21,509 nucleotides of DNA. Origin: a bacterium (lineage in GTDB: Bacteria > Zhuqueibacterota > Zhuqueibacteria > Oceanimicrobiales > Oceanimicrobiaceae). The position numbers were made by a program, and so were the translations under genes. Below, one piece after another: positions 5,564 to 15,914 of this stretch; the first letter of the stretch is position 1; each line of letters starts with the position of its first letter. The stretch spans positions 354 to 21,862 of the forward strand of contig JBBIIG010000063.1 in assembly GCA_037446635.1 (NCBI GenBank), given 5' to 3'. The notes below the pieces were generated by a model. That model searched no databases, was not told the origin of the DNA, and was given only the letters and a program-made list of their open reading frames with translations.

Positions 5564-8500
5564 ATGAAAACGAACATCTGCCCAACCCTCCCTAAGCTCT
5601 GGCTTTGCTTGTTTAGTCTTAGCTTCAGCATCTTCATTAACATTCATTCCCTGGCAGCCCAGTCGCGGTGGTCCAATAGTCCGCAAGATAACAATGCCAT
5701 TGCGGTGCTTCCCAGCGGCCAGCTCACGCCGGTGGCGGCGCGTGACGGACAGGATGGCGCCATCATCGTCTGGGTGGACAACCGCAGCAGCCATTTCGAT
5801 CTCTACGGCCAGCGCATCGATGTGGCCGGCAACCTGCAATGGAACGACGGCGGCGCGCCCCTCATCACTGCGCTCAACTCCCAGGAATCACCGGCGATTG
5901 CAGAAGCGCCAGCCGGCGGGTTCTTCCTGGCCTGGCAGGATAATCGCCTCGTCTTCGCTCAACGAGAAATTTCGGCGCAGCGATTCGACGCCGACGGCGC
6001 CCCACTTTGGGCGCAGGACGCCCGGGCGCACATTGGCAACAACGGCGCTCCGAATATTTTTCTCGATAATTCTGGCAATCTTTTCACCACGGCCTACACC
6101 TCCATCATCGCCAATCAGGCCGCCAGCGTGCAATTTCTCGACCCAGAAACTGGCGCGACGCAATTCAAGCCGCTGCAAAAAATTTTCGACCAAAACTCTG
6201 ATGCCTTGGAAACGGATTTACCGCCGGCAGTGGCAGCCGCATTAAATGGCGGTGTGCTCGCGGCCTGGGCCGATGGCCGCAGCGATACGACTCTGCAAGC
6301 GCTCGGTGTCTTGAACACCGGCGATGTCTGGGCGCCCGGACAGATCACCATCAGCGAAGATATCAAGCCGCGAACCTTCCCGGCGATCGTCAGCGACGGC
6401 AGCGAGGGCGCCATCATCGTTTGGATCGAACCCGCGGCCTTCGGGGGCAACAACGATCTCATCAAAGCTACTCGTTTGAACGCCAACGGCGGCGAGGTGT
6501 GGACTCCCGGAACCCGAGAAATTATATCGTCGCCCGGCCAAAAGCGCCGGCTGCAAATCGCCAGCGACGGCCAGAACGGCGCGTTCATCATTTGGGAAAC
6601 GCGCGTTGAACCCAACTGGCGAATTTATGCGCAGCGCATTTTCAACGACGGCCAAAGCTGGAACGCCGATGCCGCGGTTTCCGTTATCAGCAGCAATCAA
6701 ACCAAGGGCCGCATCATCAACAATCGTAAAGGCGACGCGGTTGTGGTATGGGAGGACGACCGCAACCTCTCCAGCGGCGTCGATCTCTACGCCCAGCGCC
6801 TCTCCAGCGCCGGAGTCATTGCGTGGCCGCCGGATGGCGTGGCGGTGAGCACGGCGGCCGATGCCCAGCAAAATGCCTCGCTGGTGGACGACGGTTTTGG
6901 CGGCGCCATCATCGCCTGGCAAGATTCGCGCAACGGCAACCCCGATATCTTCGCCCAGCGCGTCAGCCCCAACGGCGTGCTGGGGGAGTTTCGCACCATC
7001 ACGGTGATCGCGCCGGCGCAGGGGGATAATTGGGAAATCGGCAGCGCGCGCGATATCCGCTGGAGCGCCTCCGTGGAAATCGACAGCGTGAAAATCGAGC
7101 TCTCCCGCAACGGCGGGCTGAATTTTGAAACCATATTTGAAAAAGTCGCCAACCGCGATTCCGAAAACATTTCTACCTTTACCGTCGGTGGGAACCCGGC
7201 CGGCAACTGTCAGGTGCGCATCACGGCTATCAAAGCGGATTTCATCATCGGGTTGAGCGAAACTTTCAGCATCACCGCGCAGCAGGGGCCGAATTTGTCG
7301 CCGCCACTGCAAATTCAAAACGCCACGCTTGGCGAAAACCTACAGGTTACCGCCAGCGCCACGGATATCAGCGGCGTGAAAACCGTGACCCTGAATTACA
7401 AAGCCGGCGGCGCGCGAAATTTTACCGCCGTCAACATGGCTCCCGGCGTGGCGGCAGATGAATTTCGCGGCGCGATTCCCGGCAGCGCAGTCACCGAACG
7501 CGGCGTCGAGTATTTTGTGGCGGCCGCCGACAACATCGGCGCGGTCAGCAACAGCGACACGTTTTTCGTAACCGTTAGTTTCGGCGCTGGCGTTCAGACC
7601 CGCGAGGTCCGGCGCGGCTCGTCGCAGAACGCCTATCGCATGTTTTCCGCGCCCAATATTTTGGATGATCCGGACGCTCTGGACATCTTCTCAGCCTCTA
7701 ACTTTGGCGCCTACGACACCACGAGCTGGCGCCTTTTCCAATTTCGCGGCAACGGCTACGTGGAATTCGATTCCACCAGCAACGCCAACACCTTTCAATT
7801 CACCCCCGGCCAGGCCTACTGGGTGATTTCGGCGCGCGACCGCACCATCGATTTCGGCGCCGGGCAGTCGCAGCGCAGCGACCGCAATGCTGCCGTCACC
7901 CTGCCGCGCGGCTGGGGCCAGCTCGGCAATCCTTTTGCATTTGCGGTGGAATGGGACGCGGTGCTCGCCGCCAGCGGCCTCACGGAAGAATCGGTGCGCC
8001 AGCCGTTCGTTTATGACGGTTCGGGGTTTCTTCCAGCAACCACCATCGATCCCTACCAGGGTTACTTTGTGTTTAATAACACCACGGCCGCGCTGACCCT
8101 GCGTTTCCCGCCTCTCGAAGCCGCCGCCGCGGCCACAGCCGCCAAAGCTCCCGCCGTTGCCGGCGCGGAGTGGCAGGTGCAGCTCATCGGCGAATGTGAG
8201 GACGCGCGGGATCTTTTCAACCTCGCCGGCATCCACTCAGAGGCGGCGCAGGAATGGGACCGCTTCGATTACCCGGAGCCGCCGCCCATCGGCGATTACA
8301 TCTCCATTTATTTTCCGCGCAGCGATTGGGAGCGGTATCCCAATATTTACACCACGGATTTTCGCAAGGAGATGGACGCGGGGCAAACCTGGATGTTTGA
8401 CGTGCACACCAACATCGCCGGCGCCGAAGCCCGGGTGCGGGTCGAGGGGCTGGAGGCGCTGCCGCAAAATTTGGAAATCTGGATAGTGGATGAAAAGCTG

Positions 8501-8920
8501 AGCGTCAAACAAAATTTGCGCAGCGACAACCAGTTTGTCTTCCCAACCGGCGAACGCGGCGTCACCAAAACCTTGAAGCTGGTAATCGGCTCCGGCGATT
8601 ATCTCGCCAACGAATTGGCGAACGGCGCGTTCATTCCGGAAAATTTTGAGTTGGCGCAGAACTTCCCCAATCCGTTCAACCCGGCCACCGCCATTCGATA
8701 CGGGCTGCCGAAGGCATCGAAAGTCACGTTGAAAATTTATGATGTGTTGGGCCGGGAGGTCATCACCCTCATCAATAACGAAAACAAACAGCCCGGTTAT
8801 CATCTGATAACCTGGAACGGTAGAGACAAAAACGGCAGCGGGGTGGCCAGCGGTTTGTATATTTACCGCATCATGGCGGACAACTTTGTGCAGAGCAAAA
8901 AAATGCTGATCGTAAAGTGA
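5564..8920 (+). CDS. Large secreted protein: N-terminal repeats (probable beta-propeller), Ig-like middle modules, C-terminal T9SS type-A/FlgD-Ig sorting tail
   Basis: Signal peptide; at least six repeats like 'xDGxGGAIIAWxDxR...DIYAQR...G...W'; C-terminal 'FELAQNFPNPFNPATAIRYGLP...LKIYDVLGREV...WNGRDKNG..VASGLYIYRI...SKKMLIVK'. Confidence 0.88.
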   Translation: MKTNICPTLPKLWLCLFSLSFSIFINIHSLAAQSRWSNSPQDNNAIAVLPSGQLTPVAARDGQDGAIIVWVDNRSSHFDLYGQRIDVAGNLQWNDGGAPLITALNSQESPAIAEAPAGGFFLAWQDNRLVFAQREISAQRFDADGAPLWAQDARAHIGNNGAPNIFLDNSGNLFTTAYTSIIANQAASVQFLDPETGATQFKPLQKIFDQNSDALETDLPPAVAAALNGGVLAAWADGRSDTTLQALGVLNTGDVWAPGQITISEDIKPRTFPAIVSDGSEGAIIVWIEPAAFGGNNDLIKATRLNANGGEVWTPGTREIISSPGQKRRLQIASDGQNGAFIIWETRVEPNWRIYAQRIFNDGQSWNADAAVSVISSNQTKGRIINNRKGDAVVVWEDDRNLSSGVDLYAQRLSSAGVIAWPPDGVAVSTAADAQQNASLVDDGFGGAIIAWQDSRNGNPDIFAQRVSPNGVLGEFRTITVIAPAQGDNWEIGSARDIRWSASVEIDSVKIELSRNGGLNFETIFEKVANRDSENISTFTVGGNPAGNCQVRITAIKADFIIGLSETFSITAQQGPNLSPPLQIQNATLGENLQVTASATDISGVKTVTLNYKAGGARNFTAVNMAPGVAADEFRGAIPGSAVTERGVEYFVAAADNIGAVSNSDTFFVTVSFGAGVQTREVRRGSSQNAYRMFSAPNILDDPDALDIFSASNFGAYDTTSWRLFQFRGNGYVEFDSTSNANTFQFTPGQAYWVISARDRTIDFGAGQSQRSDRNAAVTLPRGWGQLGNPFAFAVEWDAVLAASGLTEESVRQPFVYDGSGFLPATTIDPYQGYFVFNNTTAALTLRFPPLEAAAAATAAKAPAVAGAEWQVQLIGECEDARDLFNLAGIHSEAAQEWDRFDYPEPPPIGDYISIYFPRSDWERYPNIYTTDFRKEMDAGQTWMFDVHTNIAGAEARVRVEGLEALPQNLEIWIVDEKLSVKQNLRSDNQFVFPTGERGVTKTLKLVIGSGDYLANELANGAFIPENFELAQNFPNPFNPATAIRYGLPKASKVTLKIYDVLGREVITLINNENKQPGYHLITWNGRDKNGSGVASGLYIYRIMADNFVQSKKMLIVK

Positions 8921-12135: not shown

Positions 12136-13389
12136 ATGTTAGAGGTCGCAAAGTACCCGCGCGGCAAATTAAGTATTTTGTCCGCGAGCGTTTTGCTCCC
12201 GTTTTTGATGATGGCGGGGGCCTCGTTTTCTCAACCAACCATCCCCGACGCTGTGCTGGATATTTTCGACAACCGCTGCGCCTTCGCCGGCTGCCACGCC
12301 GGTCCCAGCGCGCCGCAGGGCCTGGACTTAACCGAGCAATTTGTGATCCCCTCGCTGGTGAATCAGCCCAGCACCGGCAGACCAAGTTTGATGCGCGTGA
12401 AAGGCGGCGACCCGGCCAATAGTTACCTGATCATGAAAGTGAAGGGAAGTCCGGGCATCGCCGGCGACCCCATGCCCAAAAGCGGAGAAAGATTAAGCGC
12501 CGAGGAAATCACCGCCCTCGAAGTCTGGATCGCTGCGCTGCCGGCGGATTTCACCCAGGCCGCGCCGCCGCGCGAATACGCCGAGGCGTTTCCCGGGCTG
12601 TCGTTGGCCACACTGCCTACCACGGAAACGCTCGAACCGGGAACGTTCTCTTATCGCATCGCCCACCGTTGGGACGGCCCAGTGGACAGCGGCCTCGACG
12701 ACTTCTTCGGTCTGGATTTCGGCGCCCACATCTTCACCCAACTCTCTTTTGCCGTAACCAACAATCTGATGGTTTATTTCGGCCGCTCCGGCGAAGGCGC
12801 CACCTATGAAGCCGCTGGCAAGTGGCGGCTGCTGCGGGAGAAGAGCGACGGCTCAACCCCCTTCTCCCTGGCGGTGGTCGGCGGAGTTGATTGGGAGACC
12901 CGCAAAAATATTGCCGGCGTCAGTACCTCACGCACCGACAGCGAGCGTTTTCACTGGTTCGTGCAACTGCCTGCCTCCAAGCAACTCGGAAATCGCCTTT
13001 CGTTGTTGGTGGTTCCCGGAGTCTTAATTAACGGCAACCCCGCGCTGGACGACGAAGACCCGATCGTCACCATTGGCTTTGCCGGCAAGCTGACCCTGTT
13101 TAAGGATTTTGCGTTTTTCGTGGAGAGCGTCCCCATCGTTTCCGGCGCCGACGGCGCGGCTACCGTTACCGTCGGCGGTTTGCGTTCCGACGACGGGGCG
13201 CTGGTTTTCAACGATTCTTTTACCATTGGGTTCGAGCGGCGAGTGGGCGGCCACGTCTTTCATGTTTATGCAACCAACTCGCTGGGCCTCGCCACCAACC
13301 AATATTTGAGCGGTGGCGACTTCGATTTTTTAGATGGCGATTTTCGCTTGGGGTTCAACATCTATCGCATTTTGAGATGGCCATTTTAG
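12136..13389 (+). CDS. Fusion of an N-terminal monoheme c-type cytochrome (CX4CH) to a DUF5777-like outer-membrane beta-barrel
   Basis: GGAGG RBS, ATG 12136, signal peptide. Heme motif CAFAGCH and distal 'DPMP'. Barrel part: 'FSYRIAHRW', 'DDFFGLDFGA', 'GFERRVGGHVFHVYATNS', 'DFRLGFNIYR', terminal Phe. Confidence 0.8.
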   Translation: MLEVAKYPRGKLSILSASVLLPFLMMAGASFSQPTIPDAVLDIFDNRCAFAGCHAGPSAPQGLDLTEQFVIPSLVNQPSTGRPSLMRVKGGDPANSYLIMKVKGSPGIAGDPMPKSGERLSAEEITALEVWIAALPADFTQAAPPREYAEAFPGLSLATLPTTETLEPGTFSYRIAHRWDGPVDSGLDDFFGLDFGAHIFTQLSFAVTNNLMVYFGRSGEGATYEAAGKWRLLREKSDGSTPFSLAVVGGVDWETRKNIAGVSTSRTDSERFHWFVQLPASKQLGNRLSLLVVPGVLINGNPALDDEDPIVTIGFAGKLTLFKDFAFFVESVPIVSGADGAATVTVGGLRSDDGALVFNDSFTIGFERRVGGHVFHVYATNSLGLATNQYLSGGDFDFLDGDFRLGFNIYRILRWPF

Positions 13390-13400
13390 CGAAATGATTG

Positions 13401-13479
13401 ACCGCGAAGGTCGCTAAGAAAATGCAAGGGGCGCAAGTAAAAATTTGTTTTTTATGGCGGCCTTTGCGTTCTTTGCGGT
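13401..13479. repeat. Degenerate inverted-repeat element with 9-bp periodic arms (copy 3)
   Basis: Left arm ACCGCGAAG-GTCGCTAAG-AAAATGCAAG-GGGCGCAAG; right arm TATGGCGGC-CTTTGCGTT-CTTTGCGGT. Confidence 0.7.
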
Positions 13480-13511
13480 TAAAAAAACTTTTTTAGAAAT
13501 TAGGAGATTGT

Positions 13512-13931
13512 ATGATCCGACCTTCGGCGCGATTTTTTTTCAGCCTAATCCTGTTGAGTTTATTGAGTGCTTGTGAGCATTCGCTGCCGACGCCGGCGCA
13601 GCCGGCGCAAGCCACGCTTTCCAGCATTCAAGCGACCATTTTCACGCCCCGCTGCGCCGTAGTGGGCTGCCACGTTCCCAACGGCCTGGGGCCGATGCCC
13701 CTGCGCAACGCCAACGAAAGCTTTGCCAATCTGGTGAATGCGCCCTCGATCCAGCGCCCAAATTTGATGCGGGTGCAACCCGGCAATGCCGACGCGAGTT
13801 ACATCATTCTAAAATTAGAAGGCGCCTCCGGCATCTCCGGCACACGCATGCCGCAGGGCGGTCCGTTCCTCAGCAGCGCTCAAATCAATCTGATCCGACA
13901 ATGGGTCAACGACGGCGCGCTAAACAATTAG
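13512..13931 (+). CDS. Lipoprotein monoheme c-type cytochrome (CX4CH)
   Basis: AGGAG RBS; lipobox LLSA-C; heme motif CAVVGCH; distal 'RMPQGG'; C-terminal 'IRQWVNDGA'. Clearly homologous to the cytochrome domain of the upstream gene. Confidence 0.87.
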   Translation: MIRPSARFFFSLILLSLLSACEHSLPTPAQPAQATLSSIQATIFTPRCAVVGCHVPNGLGPMPLRNANESFANLVNAPSIQRPNLMRVQPGNADASYIILKLEGASGISGTRMPQGGPFLSSAQINLIRQWVNDGALNN

Positions 13932-13961
13932 CTTTTAAAATTCTGATAAAGTGAGGTTTAA

Positions 13962-14594
13962 ATGAAAAAGCATGCAGCATTTTTTGTTATCATCGCTTTC
14001 ATCGTTTTGGCGTCGGTTTGGGCGCAGGAAAATAAGCAGACGGCAGCCACCAACAGCAACCTGCGGGTGACGCAAATCGCCGGCCGGCGTCTTTTGGATT
14101 TGAAGAAATGCACCGATTGCCACACGCTGGGCCAGCAAACCGAGGACAAGCTGACGCCCATGACCAACAAACGCAGCAGCGAGTGGTTTACGGCTCACGC
14201 CCAGGAAAAAACCACCATCGTCCTGCGGGAGGAATCTTCTGAACGCAAACGAAAACGCGTGCTGCAGGATGAGATTTTCGCCCTCGACGATTACCTTTAC
14301 CAGAGCCCAGCCGAAGAACGAGAACAGATTGAAACCCTGCCGGCGAACGTGTTCGAGGGGGCATATCTGGTTTATCAAAACAATTGTCTCAATTGCCACG
14401 CCATCGCTGGCGAGGGCAAAGATATCGGCCCGAATTTGACCCACGTGGGCAGCAAGCGCGACAAAAGCTGGTTTATCGCCAATCTCAAAAATCCCCAGCA
14501 ATTTGCGCCGGAATCGCTGATGCCCAAGTTCGATCACCTGCCGCCCGAGACCCTCGAAAAGATGGCGGATTATCTCACTACCCTCAGAAAATAA
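13962..14594 (+). CDS. Periplasmic diheme cytochrome c
   Basis: Signal peptide ending VWA; CTDCH and CLNCH; second domain 'GPNLTHVGSKR..SW...LKNP......LMPKF' resembles CcoO/QcrC-type class I cytochromes. Confidence 0.88.
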   Translation: MKKHAAFFVIIAFIVLASVWAQENKQTAATNSNLRVTQIAGRRLLDLKKCTDCHTLGQQTEDKLTPMTNKRSSEWFTAHAQEKTTIVLREESSERKRKRVLQDEIFALDDYLYQSPAEEREQIETLPANVFEGAYLVYQNNCLNCHAIAGEGKDIGPNLTHVGSKRDKSWFIANLKNPQQFAPESLMPKFDHLPPETLEKMADYLTTLRK

Positions 14595-14595
14595 G

Positions 14596-14630
14596 GGAGT
14601 GATGGAGTTTTGGAGTTCTGGATTGATGGA
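14596..14630 (+). repeat. Short degenerate 8-bp tandem repeat
   Basis: GGAGTGAT-GGAGTTTT-GGAGTTCT-GGATTGAT-GGA between the diheme cytochrome stop and the Rieske RBS. Confidence 0.7.
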
Positions 14631-14648
14631 CGAAGGCAGGAGCCCAAC

Positions 14649-15158
14649 ATGCAGACCGCCCAAGCACAACTCACGCAGGATAATGAGAGCTTCTCCCGCC
14701 GCCGCTTTTTGAAGACGGCCATTGGGCTGCTAAACGGAACGATTGCGCTGCTGCTGGCGGCGCCCGGACTCGGTTTTCTGCTCACACCGGTGTTCCGCAA
14801 AGGCAGCGGCTCGTGGATCAAGCTCGGCGCCGCGGACCATTTTTCCTCCGCCGAGCCGATGAAAGCAACGTTCAAATATATTTCGGAAGCCGGTTACACC
14901 CGAGCTGAAAAGAGCGGTTTTGTCTGGGTGGTTCCGGCGCTTGAGGGGGAAAGTTCGGTGACGGTGTTTTCGGCGGTGTGCAGCCACACCGGCTGCAATG
15001 TGGCGTGGCAGCCAGATGAGCAAAAATTTGTGTGCCCCTGTCACGAAGGCCGCTACAATTTTCGCGGTGAGGTGGTCTCCGGGCCGCCGCCGCGCCCGCT
15101 GACCAAATTAGCGACCCGCATTGAAAACGGGCAATTGTTGATTCAATGGCCGGCTTAA
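14649..15158 (+). CDS. Rieske [2Fe-2S] protein, QcrA-like (menaquinol:cytochrome c reductase iron-sulfur subunit type)
   Basis: AGGAG RBS, ATG 14649; Tat motif SRRRFLK plus TM helix; box I CSHTGC, box II CPCHEGRY; 'SGPPPRPL'. Confidence 0.92.
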   Translation: MQTAQAQLTQDNESFSRRRFLKTAIGLLNGTIALLLAAPGLGFLLTPVFRKGSGSWIKLGAADHFSSAEPMKATFKYISEAGYTRAEKSGFVWVVPALEGESSVTVFSAVCSHTGCNVAWQPDEQKFVCPCHEGRYNFRGEVVSGPPPRPLTKLATRIENGQLLIQWPA

Positions 15159-15240: not shown

Positions 15241-15612
15241 ATGAGTACAGCAGAAAAGATTGAGCTTTTTCAAAAAACTTATGAAAAAGCTCTTGCTGGT
15301 AGCTGGAAGGGTGGTAAGGGAAGCGCTAGTTCTCATTTGAAAAAACGAAAACAGCGCGGACATCTTCCGGAAAACGCAACTTTGGAAGACCTGACTCAAC
15401 AGGGTTTAAAAGTACTTCGATCTCCAGATGCCATCGTTTATGAGGATGTTCCTTTATCAACCTTGTATTTTGCCGTTTACAAAGAATGGGCTGTCTTTTT
15501 CGACGAAGAGGGTTTATGGGATACGGCTTTTCCTCCTGATGTTCCGGAGCGGTATTTTGTTTCAACAAAAGGATATAGATTGCTGGGAAAACTAAGCGAG
15601 TTAATCACATGA
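15241..15612 (+). CDS. Small hypothetical protein; candidate RNase-type toxin
   Basis: 123 aa, no signal peptide. 'SHLKKRKQRGHLP' then a helix, then short aromatic strands 'YFAVYKEWAVFFDEEGLWDTAFPP'. The CDS is well supported; the function is inference. Confidence 0.65.
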   Translation: MSTAEKIELFQKTYEKALAGSWKGGKGSASSHLKKRKQRGHLPENATLEDLTQQGLKVLRSPDAIVYEDVPLSTLYFAVYKEWAVFFDEEGLWDTAFPPDVPERYFVSTKGYRLLGKLSELIT

Positions 15613-15914
15613 TGGAGATCGAACACTTGCTCAAAGCTTACGAAGCTGATGCTGTTGATCCAAAAGGACTGGGACGTTTTGAAGTGCTCAACATGCTAAC
15701 CAACCGTGATGTCCTTGAAGAGCACAAAAACCAGATGACTACCTTGCAGTCCGCCCGCCTACTGTTTGCCGACGAAAAGTTAATGGCCAACAGCGAACAA
15801 ATCATTGAGGAGTGCGGCGGCAAAACCGGGTTTATGAAATTGCGTCAGCACAATCCCGCGCCCTCCGCGTGGTGGTGGTTCCTCGAGCAGATCCCTGTCG
15901 CGCAATTTTCATAA
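15609..15914 (+). CDS. Small hypothetical helical protein; candidate antitoxin/immunity protein
   Basis: 101 aa; ATGA overlap with the upstream gene; Glu/Leu-rich; C-terminal 'PSAWWWFLE'. Confidence 0.65.
   Translation: MMEIEHLLKAYEADAVDPKGLGRFEVLNMLTNRDVLEEHKNQMTTLQSARLLFADEKLMANSEQIIEECGGKTGFMKLRQHNPAPSAWWWFLEQIPVAQFS

Follow-up and report, generated by a model that had tools for sequence, protein, structure and literature searches.

How might four adjacent genes, encoding a cytochrome fused to a beta-barrel, a lipoprotein cytochrome, a diheme cytochrome and a Rieske protein, move electrons between the quinone pool and the outer membrane of a bacterium? The question is raised by positions 12136..15158 of the window (the whole 21,509-nucleotide stretch of DNA that was analysed). 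Coordinates are window positions unless a contig (C) of the source genome, G000, which is 97% complete, is named. This locus is a real, conserved and undescribed envelope redox module of the barrel-cytochrome type, tied in this family to a Rieske/cytochrome b (bc) complex. A sequence-only reading had proposed a distinct, non-Cyc2 envelope redox module here, and this is what was found: a class I cytochrome c joined to an outer-membrane barrel, conserved and undescribed. The best explanation, held tentatively and at a little short of even confidence, is a redox relay from a menaquinol bc complex through periplasmic c-type cytochromes to the barrel-fused heme, and from there to a two-histidine site on the barrel. 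The features concerned are as follows.

12136..13389, + strand: gene 1, 417 amino acids (aa), comprising a signal peptide, a CX4CH/Met113 class I cytochrome c domain, a Pro/Ala-rich linker, a putative plug and a predicted 12-strand DUF5777 outer-membrane barrel
12238..12537, + strand: gene 1 heme domain, residues 35-134, with C48-AFAG-C53-H54 and predicted distal ligand M113; FoxE/PSCyt1-like
12583..12633, + strand: predicted lumen plug of gene 1, residues 150-166, from covariation in a thin alignment
12664..12666, + strand: gene 1 His177 codon, outer end of strand 1, predicted lipid-facing
13252..13254, + strand: gene 1 His373 codon, periplasmic end of strand 11, predicted lipid-facing
13512..13931, + strand: gene 2, 139 aa predicted lipoprotein (LSAC, Cys21) with a single CX4CH/Met domain
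13962..14594, + strand: gene 3, 210 aa predicted periplasmic diheme cytochrome c
14649..15158, + strand: gene 4, 169 aa Tat-anchored PetC-like Rieske protein (CPCHEGRY)
C11:27646-29313 of G000, - strand, outside the window: intact cytochrome b-diheme c orthologue with PDWY, 81% identical to the same-genus copy

The four window genes are co-oriented, separated by 122, 30 and 54 bp, and preceded by purine-rich stretches resembling ribosome-binding sites (GGAGGG, AGGAGA, GAGGT and AGGAG, for genes 1 to 4). Their four heme-type motifs (CAFAGCH in gene 1, CAVVGCH in gene 2, CTDCH and CLNCH in gene 3) and one Rieske site are as the sequence-only reading had them. A promoter and terminator scan of the locus gave nothing above chance level.

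Residues 152-412 of gene 1 match DUF5777 (PF19089) over profile positions 1-246 of 247 (E 7e-48; 163 bits against a gathering score of 23.1), bearing out the earlier impression of a DUF5777-like barrel, and the AF2 model of the protein (pLDDT 90.7) has 12 long strands forming a barrel. The domain is accordingly modelled as an outer-membrane beta-barrel, its localisation being predicted. The best structural matches are 12-strand outer-membrane barrels, with residues 150-413 aligning with FapF. We know of no heme partner for FapF or for the COG4313 barrels. Both (SphA-like in the latter case; PDB 5O65 and 4RL8) are likewise plugged 12-strand barrels, at 11-12% identity to that of gene 1, and the shared fold shows no function. 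As to whether the heme domain plugs or caps the barrel, covariation in a thin alignment suggests that the lumen is filled by residues 150-166, in a plug likely entering from and returning to the periplasm, and that the heme domain likely hangs on the periplasmic side. The plug couplings speak against an autotransporter-like topology, in which the heme would be outside the cell. The family is large: a search from one Flavobacteriaceae barrel gave 7,999 matches among 8,000 scored candidates, and a family search had matches in 13 of 31 genomes (a search across five relatives gave no match, with its controls silent too). Close homologues of gene 1 carry the source names KSB1 or Calditrichaeota, which puts the organism probably in candidate phylum KSB1, and cytochrome-DUF5777 fusions occur in other phyla too (Atlas searches). 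No paper naming DUF5777 was found in the library that was searched.

The first 135 residues of gene 1 have no Pfam match, yet they are 39% identical to gene 2. Among 121 gene 1 homologues, C48, C53 and H54 are kept in 120 and M113 in all; the heme site reads CX4CH in 116, as noted in the sequence-only reading for this copy, canonical CXXCH in the same column in four, and the last is a fragment. The 64 heme domains of 59 more distant fusions divide into 36 with CXXCH, 25 with CX4CH and three with no motif; C, C, H, M, P and W are invariant in 38/38 heme-domain sequences. Chance does not account for the CX4CH motifs, given this near-complete conservation and their exchange with CXXCH at one alignment position. 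A profile of the domain matched FoxE and c6 in the PDB (the single gene 2 sequence and the full-length profile gave no significant match there), and a fold search, run on the gene 2 paralogue, agrees with a class I helical fold. By its sequence, the domain of genes 1 and 2 is a class I cytochrome c, FoxE/PSCyt1-like, and covalent heme at CX4CH is probable from the CXXCH interchange and the presence of Ccm genes in the genome. No paper on heme attachment at CX4CH in cytochrome c was found; the main text of PMC9084895 has no CXXXXCH passage. Among 148 representatives without a barrel, 68 have the same FoxE-like domain in tandem, as arrays of 2-8 copies (proteins P0130, P0172, P0197, P0213 and others), and two more stand-alone CX4CH-domain lipoproteins lie distant from any barrel, at C51:11346-11900 (-) and C2:96847-97329 (-).

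A monoheme domain fused N-terminally to a barrel is also the architecture of Cyc2, and the sequence-only reading had taken the locus for a trans-envelope electron conduit. Read literally, as a route through the pore, this would make gene 1 a Cyc2-like iron oxidase or an electron exporter whose lumen lets Fe(II) or electrons through to the heme. Among solved structures, the closest heme domains are those of FoxE (entry title: putative iron oxidase) and PccH, which are redox proteins of that kind, and a bc complex and cupredoxins are found among the neighbours. PccH has a role in electron uptake. The Cyc2 proteins of Acidithiobacillus and Mariprofundus resemble gene 1 in having a signal peptide, one N-terminal c-heme domain fused to an outer-membrane barrel, a heme placed in the periplasm, and c-type and bc partners downstream. 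Published descriptions give Cyc2 a 16-strand porin and the motif AXPXFAR[Q/K][T/Y] directly before the heme site (10.1101/228056, PMC13741234); the barrel of gene 1 has 12 strands with a plug likely in its lumen, and the motif, whose absence from this copy the sequence-only reading had already noted, is present in 0/121 gene 1-type fusions. The heme domains differ as well, that of gene 1 being a His/Met, FoxE-like domain of ~100 residues and that of Cyc2 short, with His as its only predicted ligand; the gene 1 family is mostly CX4CH, with a predicted plug, and its barrel has an invariant His pair, whereas the Cyc2 porin is described there as poorly conserved. The genome has a separate Cyc2-like open reading frame (ORF) at C20:15450-16823 (+), of 457 aa and with a Cyc2-type motif before CXXCH, to which gene 1 has no similarity (blastp E 0.7, profile E 0.11). 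Also against a pore conduit, Flavobacteriaceae, which are heterotrophs, retain both this barrel and its heme domain. Since the domain is widely distributed, with as many as 8 copies per array, kinship to FoxE does not imply iron oxidation. With the heme domain likely periplasmic and the invariant residues predicted to face the lipid, as set out below, a route through the pore is improbable.

Nor does the locus repeat other known systems. FoxE of Rhodobacter ferrooxidans SW2 (PDB 5MAB) is diheme, whereas genes 1 and 2 are monoheme and, in contrast to FoxE, PSCyt1 and PccH, barrel-fused or lipid-anchored; identity with the FoxEYZ operon was rejected on the count of one heme domain each against the diheme FoxE (PMC10654088), and no FoxY- or FoxZ-like gene is among the recurring annotated neighbour clusters, no genome-wide search having been made. 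MtrAB, MtoAB and PioAB similarly link an outer-membrane barrel and cytochromes to a quinol-oxidising inner-membrane complex, but here there is no 26-strand barrel, no decaheme wire and at most two hemes per protein. MtrB/PioB (PF11854) was not found in the genome, and a wire of the MtrAB type is excluded from the pore because a 12-strand lumen is too small for a cytochrome.

The new element is predicted to lie on the outside of the barrel. In 479 barrels (median identity 29%) spanning fused KSB1, unfused and Flavobacteriaceae members, only eight columns reach at least 99% conservation: F152, H177, G192, G365, H373, F375, F407 and R411. H177 is present in 478 of them, the single miss being a fragment without that region; H373, F375 and F407 are each kept in 479/479 and R411 in 477. 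By hydrophobic alternation H177, H373, F375, F407 and R411 are all predicted to be lipid-facing. They lie on strands 11, 12 and 1; no other strand has a lipid-side conservation that reaches 0.68, and the strongest conservation of the barrel falls on its predicted lipid face and not on its lumen. The best strand registers, summed from covariation, close the barrel with a positive shear of ~15-19. Placed on an idealised barrel, H177 and H373 would be separated by 12-16 Å in a direction close to the membrane normal, or by 9.6 Å if the registers with least support are used. All twelve periplasmic strand ends come within 6 Å under the registers that yield 16 Å. The leading long-range couplings on the lipid side are L203-V377 and L203-I409, and these would need a second subunit.

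The invariant face may thus be an oligomer interface where cofactors sit. In a dimer, two bis-His hemes would result, R411 being in position for a propionate; in a trimer, which FapF is, the outcome would be two His3 metal sites. The fullest form of this model, a speculative one that we rate as somewhat unlikely, is that DUF5777 barrels oligomerise via strands 11-12-1-2, that the two invariant histidines from adjacent subunits bind a stack of two redox cofactors 12-16 Å apart (a dimer having two bis-His b-hemes, or a trimer two His3 metal ions along its axis), and that these would form a trans-outer-membrane wire in the lipid between the barrels, fed here by a menaquinol bc complex and standing elsewhere beside YceI, across FCB bacteria and beyond. 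Such a wire, on the same rather doubtful footing, would be an outer-membrane counterpart of cytochrome b561. No paper on a barrel with heme b and YceI was found. Alternatively, the invariant face may be a monomeric quinone or lipid site, or part of the motif may be a folding signal.

A likely source of the electrons is indicated by the other end of the cluster. Gene 3 has a bis-His heme 1 (C50/C53/H54 with H79, 28/28 sequences) and a His/Met heme 2 (C142/C145/H146 with M187, 26/28). In gene 4, the Rieske boxes CSHTGC...CPCH follow SRRRFLK and one hydrophobic helix; PF00355 scores above its cut-off, and the top NCBIfam match, PetC (E 4e-18), below. The sequence-only reading had treated this Rieske protein as a stand-alone terminus and missed a fifth gene. 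Gene 4 is the iron-sulfur (FeS) subunit of a Rieske/cytochrome b complex, whose cytochrome b comes next in 8/8 relative loci that keep the Rieske gene and is found on C11 here. In relatives this partner is a 553-558 aa fusion of a b6+IV cytochrome b (Qo motif PDWY) with a diheme c. A Ser in the Rieske protein is a sign of high-potential forms, and gene 4 is without it. MenB and MenD are present in the genome, the futalosine family PF02621 was not found there, and the genome has two oxidases. PDWY is described in PMC4122944 as the mark of menaquinol-oxidising, low-potential complexes. The PDWY-cytochrome c type complexes portrayed there share with this one a Tat Rieske protein, a PDWY-bearing cytochrome b of the fused b6+IV kind that ends in class I cytochrome c domains, and a menaquinone-making genome; they differ in that here the complex is co-located with an outer-membrane barrel-cytochrome module, with its subunit genes on different contigs in G000. 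No paper on a KSB1 Rieske/cytochrome b with multihemes was found, and the KSB1 passages of PMC10732223 do not describe this module.

How far the genes belong together was judged from the 60 best-scoring loci, 49 fused and 11 unfused, using for synteny the 39 fused loci whose downstream sequence runs to 3 kb or more. Two lipoproteins that the distance filter had passed over were added, and since kin are non-independent the results are counts and not tests. A lipoprotein follows the fused barrel in 27 loci, the diheme cytochrome in 24 and both in 22, while Rieske and cytochrome b-diheme c lie downstream in only eight. Of the four-gene unit claimed by the sequence-only reading, barrel, lipoprotein and diheme protein therefore stand as the conserved core, and the bc link is specific to this family. 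Of 167 genomes of the phylum, 74 have a match to gene 1 and, by a reading of the same table, 44 have the fused form; the diheme orthologue is in 37, and seven fused genomes are without it.

It might be argued that Rieske and cytochrome b are co-regulated neighbours of the barrel module in one family, with no direct electron-transfer tie to it, and that the window holds a decaying remnant of that arrangement. The cytochrome b orthologue is in 16/167 genomes, and in half of these linkage to the barrel cluster is not shown (apart in three, no barrel found in two, cut by contig ends in two, split in G000). Against this, the Rieske-cytochrome b order after the barrel cluster is kept in 8 genera of one family, the diheme protein never occurs without a fused barrel (37/37 genomes), and all five genes are intact in G000, so we regard incidental linkage as very improbable. 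In six of the seven unlinked relatives examined Rieske lies directly before cytochrome b, the seventh being truncated; in all, the two adjoin in 14 relatives and are separated only in G000. There, cytochrome b's place after the Rieske gene is taken at 15241-15914 (+) by two low-GC ORFs of 123 and 101 aa with overlapping stop and start, which belong to no family and are present once in the genome; on visual inspection they are reminiscent of a bacterial toxin-immunity pair. No shared repeat joining this junction with that of cytochrome b on C11 was found, and no contig from two DNA runs (share 0.10) spans the Rieske-downstream junction.

In the relay favoured here, menaquinol would be oxidised by the Rieske/cytochrome b complex with release of single electrons, which would pass from Rieske to the cytochrome b-fused diheme c and then to gene 3, an order and direction that we infer. 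Gene 3 would hand them to gene 2 or the gene 1 heme. That heme, predicted to be periplasmic, would serve a two-His cofactor site on the lipid-facing wall of the barrel and not a wire in the pore, and an oligomer would complete the His ligand sphere. Inward flow, to the two oxidases, is a possible alternative direction.

Two other uses of the barrel were weighed against the relay. It might be a gated small-solute channel like COG4313 or KdgM, in which the tethered periplasmic cytochrome oxidises or reduces a solute (either a metal chelate or a small redox molecule) as it enters, while exchanging electrons with the cytochrome c pool; with the top conservation on the predicted lipid face and no recurrent transporter or catabolic gene among the annotated neighbour clusters, such redox-coupled uptake is fairly unlikely. 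Alternatively, the barrel might be an outer-membrane redox enzyme whose His pair, with R411 and D194, binds or acts on a lipid of the membrane, a lipid peroxide or an isoprenoid quinone that comes from YceI in those loci that have one, with the cytochromes recycling it. No Ser or Cys column exceeds 65% weighted conservation, and a hydrolase triad is therefore unlikely; YceI is in only 1/49 fused loci, and an enzyme of this kind seems distinctly unlikely.

The locus ties the large DUF5777 family to a defined electron source, the menaquinol bc complex, and the cytochrome-DUF5777 fusion appears to be a second, independent invention of the Cyc2 architecture, one that motif-based screens for iron genes would miss. 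Should heme or metal be bound by the His pair, the path of electrons across the outer membrane would differ from that in porin-cytochrome wires, and if the histidines hold a trans-membrane cofactor pair, on which we remain more sceptical than not, the arrangement would be categorically new.

Other settings of the barrel vary. A paralogous clade without lipoprotein, diheme or Rieske genes accounts for 7/39 loci, five of them beside a decaheme protein. A paralogous heme-DUF5777 fusion of G000, at C2:80791-82065 (-) and 51% identical, comes after genes for a cNMP/FeS protein, a decaheme cytochrome and a Ser/Thr kinase. In a quick tree this fusion belongs to a separate clade of 8 rows with support of 99. 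In families f14 and f15 a cupredoxin lipoprotein is often upstream of the fusion, with no Rieske there, and in L072-L090 (f15) the barrel-lipoprotein-diheme core sits within a cluster of type III polyketide synthase, ICMT methyltransferase, GT4, B12 radical SAM and GT87 genes, often with the cupredoxin lipoprotein directly upstream. Unfused barrels are mostly accompanied by YceI and a heme lipoprotein, and a heme gene is present in 19 of 27 Flavobacteriaceae barrel loci. At L110:12482-13771 (-), a Cyc2-like ORF (429 aa, Cyc2-type motif) lies ~4 kb upstream of an unfused DUF5777 barrel with two heme-domain genes. The Cyc2-like ORF of G000 heads a cytochrome island (C20:15450-55535) with three Rieske/cytochrome b pairs, many proteins of 7-14 hemes, and a 427-aa barrel-like ORF near a 14-heme protein. 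Within the window, intergenic elements at 13398-13500 and ~14596-14630 are both repeated genome-wide (28 blastn matches for the first, many loose ends at the second), and 5564-8920 (+) encodes a secreted 1118-aa protein with Ig-like domains and a C-terminal domain of the FlgD/type IX secretion system (T9SS) type.

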